DNA of 64,000 bases, from the sequence record PX418922.1, one strand, 5' to 3'. Positions within the stretch are counted from its first letter, which is position 1; every line of letters begins with the position of its first letter. Shown here piece after piece: positions 55,736-63,830 of this stretch. The notes beneath the pieces were generated by a model. It saw nothing but the letters and a program-made list of their open reading frames with translations, was not told the origin of the DNA and did no database searches. The DNA is from a phage. The position numbers and the translations under genes are program-made.

Positions 55736-55966
55736 GTGTTAAATAAAATCGAAGAAGGTTGTATGGCATTTTTGGTAGATAACCCGTTTCCCTTTATGGT
55801 TAAGGTCCATGTAGGAGAGTATTTAGGTTATGACGAATGGGATTGTATTATCAATAGTGAAATGCACCACTACCAACCAACAATACTTAAGACGGATCAA
55901 ATGGCGCGTATTACAGTAGAGGATGAATTGATCATTGAGTTATACGAGAGAGCACTACACAAGTAA
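55736..55966 (+). CDS. hypothetical protein (76 aa), GTG start
   Basis: AGGAGG 4 nt ahead of GTG; sits between two terminators. Confidence 0.4.
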   Translation: MLNKIEEGCMAFLVDNPFPFMVKVHVGEYLGYDEWDCIINSEMHHYQPTILKTDQMARITVEDELIIELYERALHK

Positions 55967-56004: not shown

Positions 56005-56040
56005 TAGAAAAGGCACCCACTTGGGTGCCTTTGTTTTATT
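56005..56040. terminator. bidirectional intrinsic terminator at the convergent junction
   Basis: AGGCACCCA-CTT-GGGTGCCT flanked by an A-run and TTGTTTTATT. Confidence 0.6.
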
Positions 56041-56308
56041 CTTCGTTAGATTGCGTTTCAGACGCGTTAAATTCGGTTTCAGTACAACTTGCTAGGTAAC
56101 TTATATTTTGCATCACTACAACTACAGGTGTTTGAAGTTTATCTTCTAGCCCAGCAGCCACTTGAGCCAAAGCATTATCAATATTCGATTTCCTAACACC
56201 TGTTCCATGTCCTGTTGCCAAGTAAAGATTACCTTCCCCTTTTTGTGTAGCATTGGCAAAGTAGTAAACGTAATGTGCAAGGTAGTAATCACGGATTTCT
56301 TCAGTCAT
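56036..56308 (-). CDS. hypothetical protein (90 aa)
   Basis: ORF track. Confidence 0.45.
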   Translation of the reverse strand: MTEEIRDYYLAHYVYYFANATQKGEGNLYLATGHGTGVRKSNIDNALAQVAAGLEDKLQTPVVVVMQNISYLASCTETEFNASETQSNEE

Positions 56309-56351
56309 TTTATTCTCCTAATAAGAAAGGGGCCGAAGCCCCTTGAGTGGT

Positions 56352-57152
56352 TTATTTGTTTAAGTGGTCTTCGACCATTTTAATAAAACCTTCATTGCTG
56401 AAGGCTGTTGCAGCTTTTTCTCGGTAAACAAAAACTCCACGATCTTCATAGAGAAGTGTTTCTTCGTAATTAACTTCAGGGTTAACTACAACCATTTTTG
56501 TCCCGATGTTAAGAGCAGGAAAAAGCTCCCAGTTAAAATTGATAACTTGATTAGAGCAACCCACTACAATCACCATATCTTGAGCCGTCAAGCCGTCTAA
56601 GATGTGGTACATATCGTTATACAATGGGGCAGTCTCCCCAAAGAACACTACATTAGGCTTCACATACTTGTAATCATCTACATCGATAGCAGCATAGCCA
56701 ACATCTTTGATGATTCTATTGTCTACGATCACTTCAGGCAGGAAGCCGTGAACATGTAGAACATCTTCATGAACAACACCCGCTTGTTCCAGAAGATCAT
56801 CTACGTTTGTCGTGATGTTGATAACACGATCACAGCCGTACTCTTGAAACCATTCCGCGATCTGGTAATGCGCAGCGTTAGGAGTTACACTATCCATCTC
56901 TACGCGACGTTTATTGTAGAAGTCATGAGTTTTACGGTAGAGGTTGTATCCCTCTGCATCTAATCCGCCAACAGCCCCAGGAACACACTGTTCTTGTTGG
57001 TATCCAGCACGGAAGTTGAAAATGTCACACACTTCAGAAAGGTCGTATTCATCCCACAAAGCTTTCCCACTATCTGTATCAGTGCGGAAAGTACGTACAC
57101 CGCTATCGGCGCTTAAGCCAGCGCCGCTGATCACTATTAATCGTCTTGGCAT
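56352..57152 (-). CDS. Sir2-family NAD-dependent protein (sirtuin-like)
   Basis: NAD-binding motif GAGLSADSGVRTFR and VLHVHG (catalytic His region); no obvious zinc-ribbon Cys pairs. Confidence 0.6.
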   Translation of the reverse strand: MPRRLIVISGAGLSADSGVRTFRTDTDSGKALWDEYDLSEVCDIFNFRAGYQQEQCVPGAVGGLDAEGYNLYRKTHDFYNKRRVEMDSVTPNAAHYQIAEWFQEYGCDRVINITTNVDDLLEQAGVVHEDVLHVHGFLPEVIVDNRIIKDVGYAAIDVDDYKYVKPNVVFFGETAPLYNDMYHILDGLTAQDMVIVVGCSNQVINFNWELFPALNIGTKMVVVNPEVNYEETLLYEDRGVFVYREKAATAFSNEGFIKMVEDHLNK

Positions 57153-57649
57153 TCTTCCTCCTCATAATCATCATAATCTTCATCATCCAAATCGTACACT
57201 TCGTCTTGAGAATAACTCACTTCAAAGTAAATATCAAACTCTGCAAACAAACGTAGAATGTTGGACATGCTGTAATAGTTATCATAAGCTTCCTCTGCTT
57301 CATAGTAGAGGCGTAGCAAACGTTCAGCTTCTTCGTCTTCTACCCATTTATGATCAACATAAACAGAAGCGGCATAAATATTGTAGGCTTGTTCTCGACT
57401 ATCAGCAAGATTTCGGCTTAACAGTTCAGGGAAGTCTTTACCATTTACATTTAGTCTTCCGCATAACCACAAAGCAATATCATGCCAATCTGCATCCTCT
57501 CCGCTGAAGCAGCTTGCGACTTCGCCAAACTTGGCATCCCCTAAGTCTCCGCTAATAGTGATCATGGTTGAACTATTGTAACCACAAGTTTCGCAATTTG
57601 AACAACTGTTGTGCACATGAATTTCTACTTGAAACATATTTCCTCCCAT
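57137..57649 (-). CDS. highly acidic hypothetical protein (170 aa)
   Basis: C-terminus DLDDEDYDDYEEEECQDD; Asp/Glu-rich throughout. Confidence 0.5.
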   Translation of the reverse strand: MGGNMFQVEIHVHNSCSNCETCGYNSSTMITISGDLGDAKFGEVASCFSGEDADWHDIALWLCGRLNVNGKDFPELLSRNLADSREQAYNIYAASVYVDHKWVEDEEAERLLRLYYEAEEAYDNYYSMSNILRLFAEFDIYFEVSYSQDEVYDLDDEDYDDYEEEECQDD

Positions 57650-57680
57650 AAAAGAAAAGCCCCCTGAAACAGGAGGCTTT
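57650..57680 (-). terminator. putative intrinsic terminator
   Basis: Minus-strand AGCCTCCTG-TTTC-AGGGGGCT (one G-U) then TTTTCTTTT. Confidence 0.4.
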
Positions 57681-57695
57681 GTTCAGATTCTGACA

Positions 57696-58346
57696 CTATA
57701 CCAGACTTTGTAGGTATTTGTCAAGGGCTTCTTGATCACCTTGACAAACATAGCAACGGAAGTCTTGAGCCGAAGGTTGTTTATTCTCATCCCAGTCCCA
57801 CATTATATTACCTTTGTAACGTGAACCAGGGAAGTCGAAAAATGCTGTATGGGTGATGTGGTGTGGACCGCCCCAAACCTCTGTAAAGGTGAACTGCGGA
57901 TACGCTACCTTCACCGCCTCCATAAACCAAGCTTTACGAATCAAAGCATTGTTGATAAAATGCGCGTGACGTTCCATTTCTTCCCAGTTCTTCCACACGC
58001 TTTTCTCGTCAAGGGAAAATACAAGATCCTCTTCAATATACAAGCCATCTTCGCATTCGTCAAAATCTGCCTCAAGACCTCCTACAGGTTCGTCGAGTCT
58101 AACACCATCAAAAGCAGAATATACCCACCAACCATCTTCCAGTAAGGCTTTGATAGGGACGAAGCCTTTATCAGCATATTGATCGAATTGTTTCACACGG
58201 TGGCTTGTGCAGTCTTCAAACTCACATTCTAAACGATATGCACCTTTTCGACGAGCCTCAAGACCGTGTGTACTGAAAATAACAACACTTCCTTCACCAT
58301 CATTACGATCTACTTGATAAGCAACTACTGGTTTTGAATTTGACAT
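57696..58346 (-). CDS. hypothetical protein (216 aa)
   Basis: ORF track. Confidence 0.5.
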   Translation of the reverse strand: MSNSKPVVAYQVDRNDGEGSVVIFSTHGLEARRKGAYRLECEFEDCTSHRVKQFDQYADKGFVPIKALLEDGWWVYSAFDGVRLDEPVGGLEADFDECEDGLYIEEDLVFSLDEKSVWKNWEEMERHAHFINNALIRKAWFMEAVKVAYPQFTFTEVWGGPHHITHTAFFDFPGSRYKGNIMWDWDENKQPSAQDFRCYVCQGDQEALDKYLQSLV

Positions 58347-59029: not shown

Positions 59030-59435
59030 TACCCCTCCATTCAAGACAAGCCATAACTTTACGCCAATCACTTTCTGTAAGAAAAATCTCGTTTGCTTTC
59101 TTCCACAAATCTAAATCGTGAAGGGTTGGAATACGATATGTTAGTTCACAGAATCTATGCTCTTCTTCTGTAATATAACCAAAATGCAGAGCCACATCGT
59201 GAAACCAACACCAACCATGCATCTCTCGAACAACATGGTCATGCTGAGACATTGTTTTATGCCGTAAACCTAACCAACAAGGAACAGATACTTTAGTAGT
59301 CTTTAATCTGTGATCAACAGTATTAGAGTATTCAATAATAGCTGTCAGTTTCAATCGTGCTTTTTCTAAATCCTCATGGGTCACTTTGAAATAACTTTCT
59401 GAAAGATATCCACACATATTAATAACCTCCTTCAA
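59022..59435 (-). CDS. hypothetical protein (137 aa)
   Basis: ORF track. Confidence 0.45.
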   Translation of the reverse strand: MKEVINMCGYLSESYFKVTHEDLEKARLKLTAIIEYSNTVDHRLKTTKVSVPCWLGLRHKTMSQHDHVVREMHGWCWFHDVALHFGYITEEEHRFCELTYRIPTLHDLDLWKKANEIFLTESDWRKVMACLEWRGNE

Positions 59436-60360
59436 AAGGCTTTACTACATGTTGATTAGCTTTAAAACGTTCAACATAGTCGTTTTCACCCATGTTTTCA
59501 TATAGTTTAGTAACAACATAAAAGTTTTCCCAAGCATATTCCCTAAACCAACCACTAGTGATGGAGGTGCAGACTTTTGATAAAGCCATTATAAAACTTT
59601 GCTTAGGGGTTGGACCTCCGATCTCTTCACCGAAAGGAATTTGTGAACGTTCCAAAGCCAAAACACACGCTTCTTCATAAACACCTAACAGGCGCACATG
59701 TTTTGGTTGAGCAAAAAACTTTTCTTTGCTGGTCATAACTTCACTTCCATCTTTCATATAAGATTTATATGCTGGAGCATCCATTAACGCGATTGCTTCA
59801 TGGATAGAATCATGATCATAAACATACGGAACCTCGTCACCTTTAAAGAACTCTTTACTTTTTACGTTTAAGTTCGGATGAGAGTAAGTGTATGTTTCTT
59901 TCTCACGCAACTCATAAATACTCTTAAGATTTTCTGGGATCTTTGCGCCCAGTGACCGCATGAAATGAATATCTTTCATAGTTTTAAAGAAGTGAGGACT
60001 ATCCTTTTTAAAACGATGACTCATTTTAAGAAGGTAGAGCACATCTAAAGGAGCAACAACATGTCCAGCGTAAGTTCGACGAACATCATCAGAATCTTCA
60101 CAATAACTAATCAAAGCTTCTGTGCTATCTCCTTGAGAAGCAATATCGTATTCCAAATGTGCACCAGCTATCATTTTGACATGGCCTTTGTTCCCTTTAC
60201 GTTCTACAAGTTCAACAAACTCGTCTTGAGAGAACATTTTTGATAATTCTTCCCACTCTTGTTCTGTACACAGGTAATCTAAATCTACACAAGGGCGATA
60301 CAAGTCTTTTCCCATGTCCATAGCATGAATTTGTAATGCACGGCTACCAATTAACACCAT
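59419..60360 (-). CDS. nucleotidyltransferase-fold protein (tentative)
   Basis: N-terminal LIGSRALQ...DLDYL resembles the GS...DxD signature of the Pol-beta-like NTase fold. Confidence 0.35.
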   Translation of the reverse strand: MVLIGSRALQIHAMDMGKDLYRPCVDLDYLCTEQEWEELSKMFSQDEFVELVERKGNKGHVKMIAGAHLEYDIASQGDSTEALISYCEDSDDVRRTYAGHVVAPLDVLYLLKMSHRFKKDSPHFFKTMKDIHFMRSLGAKIPENLKSIYELREKETYTYSHPNLNVKSKEFFKGDEVPYVYDHDSIHEAIALMDAPAYKSYMKDGSEVMTSKEKFFAQPKHVRLLGVYEEACVLALERSQIPFGEEIGGPTPKQSFIMALSKVCTSITSGWFREYAWENFYVVTKLYENMGENDYVERFKANQHVVKPFEGGY

Positions 60361-61709: not shown

Positions 61710-62200
61710 AAAACCTCCTCAATCTTGTAGTTTGACTCCATCTCCAATACATTTCCACGAACGTCTCTCCGAAGAAAGGCATAAGCTTTATTAGGTATTG
61801 TAGACTCATATTTAACCATATCTGGCACAGCAAAAGATACTACTACTCCTGCTGGGCTTCTGTCAAGAGCCTTATTAATATTTCTAAGGATATCGTTAGC
61901 CAAGATTTCTGCCAATTCTCCAAGAACGGTTTCGGTTATATCTTTATATCCCATTAAGTATTTGTTGATATCTTTCATCTCTGTATTGTTCAGAGTATAA
62001 TCCAAAGGATAGAAATTCAAAGCGGAGTCACTTTTATGTGTCCACATGAAATGCACCCGATCCGAGCAGAATCGTAACCCTCTTTGAAGAATATCTTCTA
62101 CAACAGGCAGAATTTCTTTTGTCACATCATTAACCATGTTGTAATCTAAGATTTCTGCCAAGTTTGTTCTTTGTTCACCACGTTTACGTTTAGGAATCAC
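61688..62200 (-). CDS. hypothetical protein (170 aa)
   Basis: ORF track. Confidence 0.5.
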   Translation of the reverse strand: MIPKRKRGEQRTNLAEILDYNMVNDVTKEILPVVEDILQRGLRFCSDRVHFMWTHKSDSALNFYPLDYTLNNTEMKDINKYLMGYKDITETVLGELAEILANDILRNINKALDRSPAGVVVSFAVPDMVKYESTIPNKAYAFLRRDVRGNVLEMESNYKIEEVLWQSSDQ

Positions 62201-62771
62201 TTGTTATTGCCCTCATTACCAAAGGTCGTAGAAAATCGTAAATCTCTTGTTTTGTTTTCCCACGAATGTTTAAACAAGGAACATTATTGGCTTTAGCTAT
62301 CTTCCAAGCCGTAGCTGTTCCACCTTTTGCATCTCCATGTTTATCAGTATTAGCACAAGCCAACAAGAAACATGATGGAGCAGGATTCTCCAAATCTCTA
62401 CCTAACACTTGATGCACATTACGTTGGTGCAATTTTCTAGCACCCTGCTTAAGCTTTTCATAGGCTGGGTGAACATCTTTGATCCATTGCACAGAGATAG
62501 CATAGTTCATTGTATCTGGTTTTGCAAGAACAATAACATCCCCTGGAATCTGATTACCTTTGAAATTTTCCCAAGGAACATAAATCTCCTTGTTAGTAGG
62601 ATTTTCAGACTCTTGGACACCTGTTTCAAAAGCAGAATCACTACCCTCTGCCTTCCCAGACCTTAATTTAAACCCAAGGTTTGAAAGCCATTTCCCTATG
62701 CCTACCATCAAAGCCCACTCTTCTTCGGATATGTCTCTACTTCCAACTCCCGTATAGAACAGTTCTGCCAT
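62190..62771 (-). CDS. DprA/Smf-like Rossmann-fold protein (SLOG-type)
   Basis: YTGVGSRDIS ... SGKAEGSDSAF ... GGTATAW pattern; start moved to ATG after GAGGTG. Confidence 0.45.
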   Translation of the reverse strand: MAELFYTGVGSRDISEEEWALMVGIGKWLSNLGFKLRSGKAEGSDSAFETGVQESENPTNKEIYVPWENFKGNQIPGDVIVLAKPDTMNYAISVQWIKDVHPAYEKLKQGARKLHQRNVHQVLGRDLENPAPSCFLLACANTDKHGDAKGGTATAWKIAKANNVPCLNIRGKTKQEIYDFLRPLVMRAITSDS

Positions 62772-62778
62772 AATCACC

Positions 62779-63087
62779 TCAACAAGTAATTTCAAAAGGT
62801 GTATACGGTTCCGTATTTCTCATGATCCAAGGACTGCTAGGATTGCTCGGATCATAAGGACCAAAAGGTTTTATGGTCGGTTGTGTTTCTTTCTTCTGAA
62901 TCTCTTCAAAAATACGACGAAGTTCAGAATATTCTTGATCCACCATAAGATTCGGTGCATCTGATTCTACAGCTTGCAGGTTATCTTCCTTAAGAACAAT
63001 CTCACGAACAAGATTAACATCTTCTGTTTCTAAGATAACTTCTTTACGGATATTACCTACACTTTGAATAATTGTAATCTTATACAT
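62779..63087 (-). CDS. hypothetical protein (102 aa)
   Basis: ORF track. Confidence 0.45.
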   Translation of the reverse strand: MYKITIIQSVGNIRKEVILETEDVNLVREIVLKEDNLQAVESDAPNLMVDQEYSELRRIFEEIQKKETQPTIKPFGPYDPSNPSSPWIMRNTEPYTPFEITC

Positions 63088-63830
63088 TAATCCTCCTCAA
63101 GAGTTGAATAAAATTGAAGACCACCGTCCATATCGAAATAAGCAAATGTTAAGTTATTATTGAACACAGATCCAGTATCCATATAAACACGATTCGCATT
63201 GATAATAGGTGTTTTTACATAAGAGTGTCCATGAAACACATAATCCACACCCATCACAACAGGAAGTTTCATTCCCTCTTTAGCACAGTCTACCATATCT
63301 CTGTCCCACATAAGTGCTTCAGCAAAACGGTTTTCCTGTGTTTTTGTCATCTTCGAAATGTATTCTGGAATATCTGTTACAGGGAGATATTCCAAAGAAG
63401 ATGGATACCCACCATGAATAAACGCAAGTTTCATGCCTCTGTAGTTAACAATGAGAACAACAGGTAAATCTTCTGTCATCATTGTTAAGGCTGTAGCTCC
63501 TTCTTCACCACATTCTTCAAAGACCGTATATCCTCCATTTTGATACCAACACTCGTAGTAGCTACGATCTCCTTCCAGCATACCTTTAATCATCATGTCT
63601 TCATGATTGCCACGAATAGCGTAGCGATTGTGTTTACGAGTAAATTCTAAAACACAACGAAAGTTTTGCTTTCCACGGTCAGTAAGATCTCCTAGAGATA
63701 CAACCACATCTGTATCTCGGATACCTAACTTTGCCTTTCCTTTTTCATACAAATTATAACAACCGTGTAGATCTCCAATTATAAAAAGATCTTGATCGCT
63801 TTTAACAGTAATTTCTCTGTGTATGATCAC
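63087..63830 (-). CDS. Ser/Thr protein phosphatase (calcineurin-like metallophosphatase)
   Basis: Motifs GDLHG, GDLTDRG, GNHE; GTG start overlapping upstream stop (GTGA). Confidence 0.7.
   Translation of the reverse strand: MIIHREITVKSDQDLFIIGDLHGCYNLYEKGKAKLGIRDTDVVVSLGDLTDRGKQNFRCVLEFTRKHNRYAIRGNHEDMMIKGMLEGDRSYYECWYQNGGYTVFEECGEEGATALTMMTEDLPVVLIVNYRGMKLAFIHGGYPSSLEYLPVTDIPEYISKMTKTQENRFAEALMWDRDMVDCAKEGMKLPVVMGVDYVFHGHSYVKTPIINANRVYMDTGSVFNNNLTFAYFDMDGGLQFYSTLEED

Follow-up and report, generated by a model that had tools for sequence, protein, structure and literature searches.

A putative class III-type sirtuin of an Escherichia coli phage and the acidic protein encoded next to it

Background

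The 64,000-nucleotide stretch of phage DNA analyzed here (sequence record PX418922.1; the window, for short) contains two overlapping genes on the minus strand, one for a Sir2-like protein (sirtuin) and the other for a strongly acidic protein, and this locus raises the questions of what the phage sirtuin does with NAD+ and whether the two products work together. The best explanation, held tentatively and put at a little below an even chance, is that the Sir2-like protein is a catalytically competent phage sirtuin derived from class III enzymes, most likely a deacylase, and that the acidic neighbor represents a gene order specific to one phage lineage. The analysis shows the family membership, conserved residues, predicted fold, gene order, distribution and recombination of the two genes; the enzymatic activity, the substrate and the independence from the acidic protein are inferred. 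The two genes are the following.

56352..57152, minus strand: Sir2-like gene, 266 amino acids (aa), Pfam SIR2, PHROG 2162, homologue of phAPEC8 gp197
57137..57637, minus strand: gene of the acidic protein, 166 aa, PHROG 9509; an alternative ATG at 57649 would yield 170 aa

Over 4.5 kb around this locus, the window is 94-98.5% identical at the nucleotide (nt) level to the Escherichia phages SKA64, phAPEC8, TSP7_1 and UP17 and can be assigned, because of this similarity, to Phapecoctavirus (subfamily Stephanstirmvirinae), that is, to a virulent myovirus of E. coli with a genome of ~150 kb. The window maps to phAPEC8 from ~114.8 kb, across the ends of the record, to ~31.8 kb. The product of phAPEC8 gp197, a “putative Sir2-like protein” (YP_007348440), shares 99.2% aa identity with the window sirtuin, and that of gp196, a hypothetical protein, 76% with the acidic protein. 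The gene order, the overlap and the flanking hairpins are alike in the two phages; the phAPEC8 acidic protein differs in that its middle part (aa ~40-120) is another allele, with ~50% nt identity.

The Sir2 gene itself is already known: its annotation in phAPEC8 dates from 2012, over 100 genomes carry the annotation, and both the analysis of the clade and the loss of the zinc ligands are in print (PMC9503650, PMC5107563). This particular locus is of modest value, because its sirtuin gene is nearly identical to one annotated before and the pairing does not generalize. An open reading frame (ORF) of 187 aa on the plus strand (56944-57507) was considered as well and is treated as spurious because it has no PHROG match and is antisense to two conserved genes.

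A phage sirtuin related to class III deacylases

Searches with the Sir2-like protein identify the Pfam family PF02146 with E=5.6e-20 (72.5 bits, against a gathering cut-off of 24) and PHROG 2162, “Sir2 (NAD-dependent deacetylase)”, with E=1.3e-101, residues 2-266 being aligned with positions 10-271 of the 277-position profile; matches in NCBIfam also back the sirtuin identity. The initial annotation, which was made without database searches, had recognized an NAD-binding GAGxSxxSGxxTFR motif, an HG catalytic region and an absence of zinc-ribbon cysteines, and on all three counts its reading stands. The NAD-binding loop is GAGLSADSGVRTFR (residues 10-23, from G10 to R23), the catalytic region is H133-V-H135-G136, with the HG dipeptide at H135-G136, and the stretch of 31 residues from H135 to K165, in which canonical sirtuins have two CxxC pairs, contains no cysteine at all. 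Further motifs are T114-T-N-V-D118 and K165-P-N-V-V-F-F-G-E173.

Some 60 positions do not vary among 25 members of the clade with identities of 54-99%, and every catalytic one is among them: G10, A11, G12, S14, S17, G18, F22, R23, Y79, R82, N116, D118, H135 and G136, together with the KPNV..FF.E loop, G198, S200 and N224. The ratio of nonsynonymous to synonymous substitution rates (dN/dS) of 0.03-0.11 indicates purifying selection. As judged from this pattern, the protein is an enzyme under strong constraint rather than a decoy, and it looks catalytically competent and NAD+-consuming. All 25 members have no more than one cysteine in the former zinc module, so that the loss of zinc binding is a trait of the phage clade. 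A 2016 study of Vibrio phages described viral Sir2/CobB proteins as having salt bridges in place of the zinc ligands (PMC5107563).

Homologues of this protein are detected in 979 of 50,697 phage records, namely in T5-like Demerecviridae, Vequintavirus (rV5), Stephanstirmvirinae, Rak2-like jumbo phages and KVP40-like Vibrio phages. Sirtuins are thus found in ~2% of sequenced phage records; T5 is one of the carriers, as are several groups of therapeutic E. coli, Salmonella and Klebsiella phages.

In the Protein Data Bank (PDB), the closest entries by sequence (phmmer) are E. coli CobB (1S5P/6RXJ, 1.4e-15), Sir2-Af2 and SIRT5. A Foldseek search started with the AlphaFold2 (AF2) model of the phage protein (mean predicted local distance difference test, pLDDT, of 83.7) gives the best superposition with CobB (TM 0.70/0.81, 25-26% identity), followed by SIRT5 and Sir2-Af1. 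By sequence and predicted fold, the phage protein is a class III (CobB/SIRT5-type) sirtuin. It shares with CobB and SIRT5 the GAGxS...FR loop, the N and D of QNID, the catalytic histidine, the FGE loop and the YxxR pair; it differs from them in the low overall identity, in the missing Cys4 zinc site, in a Thr for Gln in TQNID and in a longer insertion at residues 24-75. The YxxR pair of SIRT5 and CobB (Y102/R105 in SIRT5) holds the carboxylate of succinyl- or malonyl-lysine. The phage segment F78-Y79-N-K-R82-R83 aligns with FYNARR of CobB, its Y and R being invariant in the clade, and the active-site residues Y92, R95 and I131 named for CobB (10.1101/723684) align with Y79, R82 and V117, respectively. 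The class III assignment combined with the conserved YxxR would narrow the candidate substrates of the phage sirtuin to anionic groups.

Deacylation as the most likely activity

These comparisons are compatible with the following scheme. The PHROG 2162 clade would have derived from class III deacylases, with the four zinc cysteines lost and a Cys-free hairpin of similar length kept in their place. In the first step of the presumed reaction, an oxygen of the anionic acyl or phosphoryl group of the substrate would attack C1' of the NAD+ ribose, with the release of nicotinamide; in the second step, His135 would activate the 2'-OH, and Tyr79 and Arg82 of the YxxR pair would hold the negatively charged group. 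The likeliest activity would be lysine deacylation (removal of acetyl, succinyl or malonyl groups) of host or phage proteins in the course of infection. Deacylation is favored because of the similarity to CobB and SIRT5 and the retention of the histidine and the YxxR pair; it ranks first among the possible activities, at slightly less than an even likelihood, and a reaction with the 2'-phosphate of RNA ranks second, at a distinctly lower one. Whether phage sirtuins deacylate proteins, repair RNA or alter the NAD+ and ADP-ribose pools bears on the NAD+-centered conflict between phages and their hosts.

Several observations weigh against this interpretation. The Gln of TQNID is replaced by Thr throughout the clade. 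The zinc module forms part of the peptide-binding cleft in canonical sirtuins, and it is remodeled in the phage protein; the remodeled region (residues 131-160) is modeled with a pLDDT of only 54-68. The scores of the phage protein fall short of the cut-offs of the NCBIfam CobB equivalogs (the best scores are 99 bits for a cut-off of 243 and 81.5 bits for one of 320), which suggests a divergent relative of CobB rather than an orthologue, and because the scores are so far under the cut-offs, the substrate specificity may differ from that of CobB. The literature searches turned up no experimental study of a Sir2 protein from any phage. The neighborhoods of the sirtuin genes of Vequintavirus and jumbo phages, described below, point to a role linked to RNA ends or ADP-ribose and not to deacylation. 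Finally, with regard to the gene order, the tight coupling of the sirtuin and acidic genes (the 16-nt overlap and the common flanking signals) persists at ~35% protein identity, and such conserved coupling would be equally expected of a real partnership.

The acidic protein

The upstream gene had been described in the initial annotation as encoding a very acidic protein with a poly-Asp/Glu C-terminus and as overlapping the Sir2-like gene by 16 nt, and this description is accurate: the overlap spans 57137-57152, and the 166-aa protein has an isoelectric point (pI) of 4.05, a net charge of about -32, and Asp or Glu at 16 of its last 30 positions. It ties for the most acidic product among the 80 ORFs of at least 100 aa in the window. 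The true start is probably the second ATG, at 57637, because it is preceded by GGAGG and the ATG at 57649 lacks a ribosome-binding site.

This protein matches PHROG 9509, a family of unassigned function, over the full length with E 1.4e-61; searches of Pfam, NCBIfam and PADLOC return nothing. When 1.84 billion representative proteins were searched exhaustively with a profile of this family, 18 hits were obtained, all of them from phages. Two long repetitive proteins, P0136 and P0138, were matched via low-complexity T/S/C-rich repeats and were dismissed. By tblastn, the family is found in ~135-150 phage records. Its members fall into two groups, Stephanstirmvirinae on the one hand and Rak2/GAP32-like jumbo phages with related metagenomic contigs on the other hand.

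The AF2 model of the acidic protein (pLDDT 83.5) consists of a folded domain (residues 1-148) and a disordered acidic tail (residues 149-166, pLDDT <50). The predicted fold, which has no match in the PDB, begins with a long N-terminal beta-hairpin, the tip of which carries a CxxC motif, and continues with four helices and one last strand. In 15 diverse members of the family, only C15, C18, G38 and C43 are invariant (motifs DCE[TD]CG and AxC[FY]G), and the three cysteines represent a possible metal (zinc) site. All members of the family end in a tail rich in D, E, Y and W, even where no Sir2 gene follows downstream, so that the tail is not a mere by-product of the overlap. The gene evolves under purifying selection (dN/dS 0.10-0.43), and its product, one of a tiny family confined to phages, evolves fast.

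A sliding comparison of the window with phAPEC8 shows ~99% identity, except for two replacement patches with ~50% identity.

57520-57280, minus strand: replacement patch 1, inside the acidic gene, aa ~40-120
58170-57780, minus strand: replacement patch 2, in the middle of the gp195-like protein of 216 aa

This pattern suggests recombination or diversifying selection acting on the acidic and gp195-like proteins. A further locus, L007, shares its allele with the window at both patches (91-98% identity); elsewhere in the region its identity to the window is mostly ~51-86%, with the exception of a shared conserved stretch at 57574-57823.

The acidic protein had also been proposed to be a DNA mimic. 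T7 Ocr, ArdA and T4 Arn are comparable to it in size and in their extreme negative charge, but they lack the beta-hairpin with the CxxC knuckle and the disordered tail, and neither the sequence nor the predicted fold is similar to these known families. Its charge notwithstanding, the protein does not appear to belong to any known family of DNA mimics. Regardless of family, it could be a stand-alone factor of host takeover or anti-defense, functionally unrelated to the sirtuin; it might, for instance, imitate nucleic acid and thereby titrate a DNA- or RNA-binding protein of the host or a restriction or defense protein. The high charge and the disordered tail rich in D, E and Y that is found across this tiny phage-restricted family are compatible with such a role, as are the fast evolution and the replacement patch between ~99% identical genomes, as would be seen at a host interface, and the surroundings of small genes without assigned function. 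A stand-alone role at the host interface is the most plausible one for the acidic protein taken separately, albeit somewhat unlikely in itself. A family that is very small, structurally unmatched and fast-evolving is also a reasonable candidate for anti-defense screens.

A possible role of the sirtuin in RNA repair

The phage sirtuin clade has been proposed to function in RNA repair in a manner similar to Tpt1/KptA (Iyer, Burroughs, Anantharaman and Aravind 2022; PMC9503650, section 3.7.3). Under this hypothesis, the sirtuin would move ADP-ribose from NAD+ to the 2'-phosphate at the broken end of a tRNA or mRNA, ADP-ribose 1''-2'' cyclic phosphate would be released, and RNA cut by host anticodon nucleases would become religatable. 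The two-step sirtuin mechanism, with the histidine acting on the 2'-OH, parallels that of Tpt1, and the YxxR pair could hold a phosphate. The published neighborhoods are confirmed in Vequintavirus inoa, where the order is a kinase (AAA_33), a calcineurin-like phosphoesterase, RNA ligase 1, cREC and Sir2, and in jumbo phages, where the Sir2 gene overlaps a Nudt16-like Nudix gene. The window sirtuin belongs to the same zinc-less family with the same invariant catalytic core but adjoins the PHROG 9509 acidic gene and not the genes of an RNA ligase, cREC, a kinase or a Nudix protein.

This context is broken up in the lineage of the window. A complete genome of the phAPEC8 type, composed of the window and the loci L001, L016 and L017, was searched by tblastn with the Vequintavirus and jumbo phage neighbors, and RNA ligase 1, a PNK-like kinase and a Nudt16-like Nudix protein were not detected in it. 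Only cREC, a MazG-like protein, a DNA ligase and a truncated phosphoesterase were found, all of them far from the Sir2 gene (28-30 kb in the case of cREC, the MazG-like protein and the DNA ligase). Within the window, no RNA-repair neighbors are present apart from a calcineurin-like phosphoesterase ~6 kb away. T5-like phages likewise carry the sirtuin without such neighbors. The RNA-repair gene context is thus missing in the phAPEC8-type lineage, and RNA-end repair is an unlikely, even if the second-ranked, activity of the sirtuin.

The L016 segment (phAPEC8 52.1-55.4 kb) contains a cluster of cREC (gp134), a truncated metallophosphoesterase, an ATP-dependent DNA ligase and a MazG-like pyrophosphohydrolase (gp140). 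This cluster, in which gp134 is 54% identical to the Vequintavirus cREC that adjoins Sir2, corresponds to the Vequintavirus Sir2 neighborhood but lacks Sir2 and RNA ligase 1. In Stephanstirmvirinae, the Sir2 gene has apparently moved to another place in the genome. The phosphoesterase gene of the window (63087-63830, minus strand) is the sole local element that recalls the published neighborhood; like a DprA-like gene (PHROG 768, 62190-62795, minus strand), it belongs to the minus-strand array of the two genes and is located 5-6.5 kb upstream.

Gene order and probable co-expression of the two genes

The signals around the two genes suggest that they form a unit of expression.

57695..57724, minus strand: sigma-70-like promoter candidate TTGACA-N18-TATAGT, 11 of 12 positions matched, with TG upstream of the -10 hexamer
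57656..57680, minus strand: G+C-rich hairpin with a subsequent T-run, downstream of the promoter candidate and ahead of the acidic gene
57137..57163, minus strand: dual-coding junction, with the Sir2 ATG at 57152-57150 and the TAA stop of the acidic gene at 57139-57137
56327..56344, minus strand: terminator-like hairpin GGGGC-TTCG-GCCCC followed by a T-run, directly 3' of the Sir2 stop

The two ORFs share exactly 16 nt, and the codons GAG GAG GAA GAA (GAGGAGGAAGAA) for EEEE in the acidic tail double as the Shine-Dalgarno sequence of Sir2 (GGAGG, 57161-57157). The spacing between the genes is -16 nt in Phapecoctavirus and in the divergent locus L008, and +11 nt in Justusliebigvirus. The promoter candidate sits within the 3' end of the upstream gene; both of its hexamers are kept in Eryne, L008 and L010, a conservation that is ambiguous because the hexamers overlap conserved coding sequence. 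The hairpin at 57656-57680 may be the terminator of the upstream unit and/or a stem in the 5' leader, or an attenuator. In relatives of the window, its stem sequences differ and the pairing is preserved; an Rfam search gives only a sub-threshold match to Phe_leader (32 against 55 bits). The promoter-like site lies only ~8 nt upstream of this hairpin, an arrangement that is kept in Justusliebigvirus and a metagenomic relative. The terminator-like hairpin is kept in Eryne and L008, with an altered loop. Given that the order of promoter-like site, hairpin, ribosome-binding site, acidic gene, Sir2 and terminator is maintained across Phapecoctavirus and Justusliebigvirus, these signals suggest a bicistronic unit, from promoter to terminator, in Stephanstirmvirinae. 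The acidic gene would be co-transcribed and translationally linked to Sir2 in this subfamily and would encode an independent, possibly zinc-binding protein.

A stronger interpretation is that of a dedicated two-component system, in which the acidic protein would act on the sirtuin as an inhibitor or pseudo-substrate via its tail, as an activator, as a zinc module provided in trans, or as a substrate. The overlap, with the Shine-Dalgarno sequence inside the tail codons, is compatible with this possibility, and so is the maintenance of the promoter-like site and the hairpins in two genera between which the acidic proteins are 33-39% identical. The acidic protein has a CxxC knuckle and a third invariant cysteine, and the sirtuin has lost its zinc site; furthermore, both lineages of the acidic family also carry a phage Sir2 somewhere in the genome.

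The comparative data do not bear this interpretation out. The block of gp195-like, acidic, Sir2 and gp198-like genes is present in 7 of the 7 Stephanstirmvirinae-type loci examined, which span Phapecoctavirus, Justusliebigvirus and a divergent metagenomic lineage; because the entire four-gene block is syntenic, adjacency alone carries little information. Outside Stephanstirmvirinae, adjacency is not seen, and a two-gene module recurring across independent lineages was not found. The T5-like phage bux and Vequintavirus inoa have Sir2 without an acidic-family neighbor, and conversely, no Sir2 gene is present within 6-8 kb of the acidic-family members in GAP32, four IMG/VR jumbo phage contigs and two metagenomic contigs, where these genes sit in a thymidine-kinase/RNA-ligase region. 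In jumbo phages that possess both genes, these are 36-47 kb apart, and in Asteriusvirus jumbo phages, Sir2 is present and no acidic homologue was detected. Altogether, an acidic homologue is not detected in ~85% of the phage records with Sir2 (979 records for Sir2 as opposed to ~135-150 for the acidic family), and there are no Sir2-acidic fusions among the hits of the exhaustive hidden Markov model search (1.84e9 representatives).

The alleles of the two genes are also shuffled. In phAPEC8, Sir2 is 99% and the acidic protein 76% identical to the window counterparts, with the ~50%-identity patch in the acidic gene located right beside the nearly unchanged sirtuin; in L007, the respective values are 78% and 97%. 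Because alleles recombine freely, which is not expected of co-adapted partners, a dedicated partnership is unsupported. The pairing is real as a gene order, with probable co-expression in one subfamily, and an obligate two-component system finds no support in the comparative data; a genuine partnership specific to this lineage is improbable. The suggestion of the initial annotation that the acidic protein is a DNA mimic or regulatory partner thus survives only in weak form: the overlap and the apparent co-transcription speak for it, and the restriction of adjacency to one subfamily, the shuffled alleles and the lack of a match to known mimics speak against it.

Slightly more improbable still is an elaborate variant in which the acidic protein would be a zinc-binding (C15/C18/C43) subunit or a pseudo-substrate, with the tail gating the YxxR site, in a regulated NAD+-consuming module of takeover or anti-defense. 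If this were the case, an arms race with a target in the host would account for the hypervariable central part of the acidic protein.

Comparison with defense-associated SIR2 proteins

The SIR2 NADases associated with defense (ThsA, DSR1/2, SIR2-HerA, pAgo-SIR2) likewise lack the zinc ribbon and share the superfamily fold with the phage protein; the latter differs in being a stand-alone protein of 266 aa, without a sensor domain and with deacylases as its nearest kin. None of the PADLOC defense-SIR2 models is matched; the only PADLOC hit is one of 39 residues to PDC-S65 (E 3e-4), which is not meaningful. No SLOG, HerA, pAgo, TIR or CTD sensor domains are encoded by the neighbors of the Sir2 gene and none is fused to it, and no Pfam Macro domain, of the kind that adjoins SirTM-type sirtuins, is found in the neighboring ORFs.

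The initial annotation pointed to the NADase effectors of bacterial defense and to a possible decoy role. That the phage protein is such an NADase, or a dead decoy against the SIR2-based defense of the host, has in its favor only the precedent of the many bacterial SIR2 domains with NADase activity and is very improbable: the protein matches no PADLOC defense-SIR2 model and is closest to CobB and SIRT5 in the PDB, every catalytic position is invariant across the clade and dN/dS is low (0.03-0.11), which makes a decoy unlikely, and unregulated hydrolysis of NAD+ would hurt a phage that needs it. Both the defense-type and the decoy alternatives were rejected on these grounds.

Neighboring genes and minor observations

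The pair is flanked, in every Stephanstirmvirinae-type locus examined, by the gp195-like gene (216 aa, PHROG 8514, 57696-58346, minus strand) and the gp198-like gene (90 aa, PHROG 15991, 56036-56308, minus strand). The products of both are acidic proteins without a Pfam match. In T5-like phages, as seen in bux (L002, 4327-4509), Sir2 is overlapped at its 3' end by the gene of an acidic protein of 60 aa (pI 4.16, net charge -10) that has no sequence relation to PHROG 9509.

In jumbo and T4-like contigs (L005, which is GAP32 at 95-105 kb, and L019), the acidic-family gene is accompanied by genes of a DUF5856 protein and thymidine kinase, and an RNA ligase of the PHA02142 type is encoded ~4-6 kb downstream.

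The plus-strand genes end at 55966 and the minus-strand array, running toward them, ends at 56036. Between these convergent groups lies a perfect hairpin with a 10-bp stem and T-runs on both sides (56009-56032) that looks like a bidirectional terminator. Further upstream in the minus-strand array, the gene at 59419-60360 encodes a protein of 313 aa that contains the Pfam domains DUF7277 and DUF7275 (PHROG 2141) and whose N-terminus (GS...DLD) resembles, by eye, a nucleotidyltransferase of the Pol-beta type.

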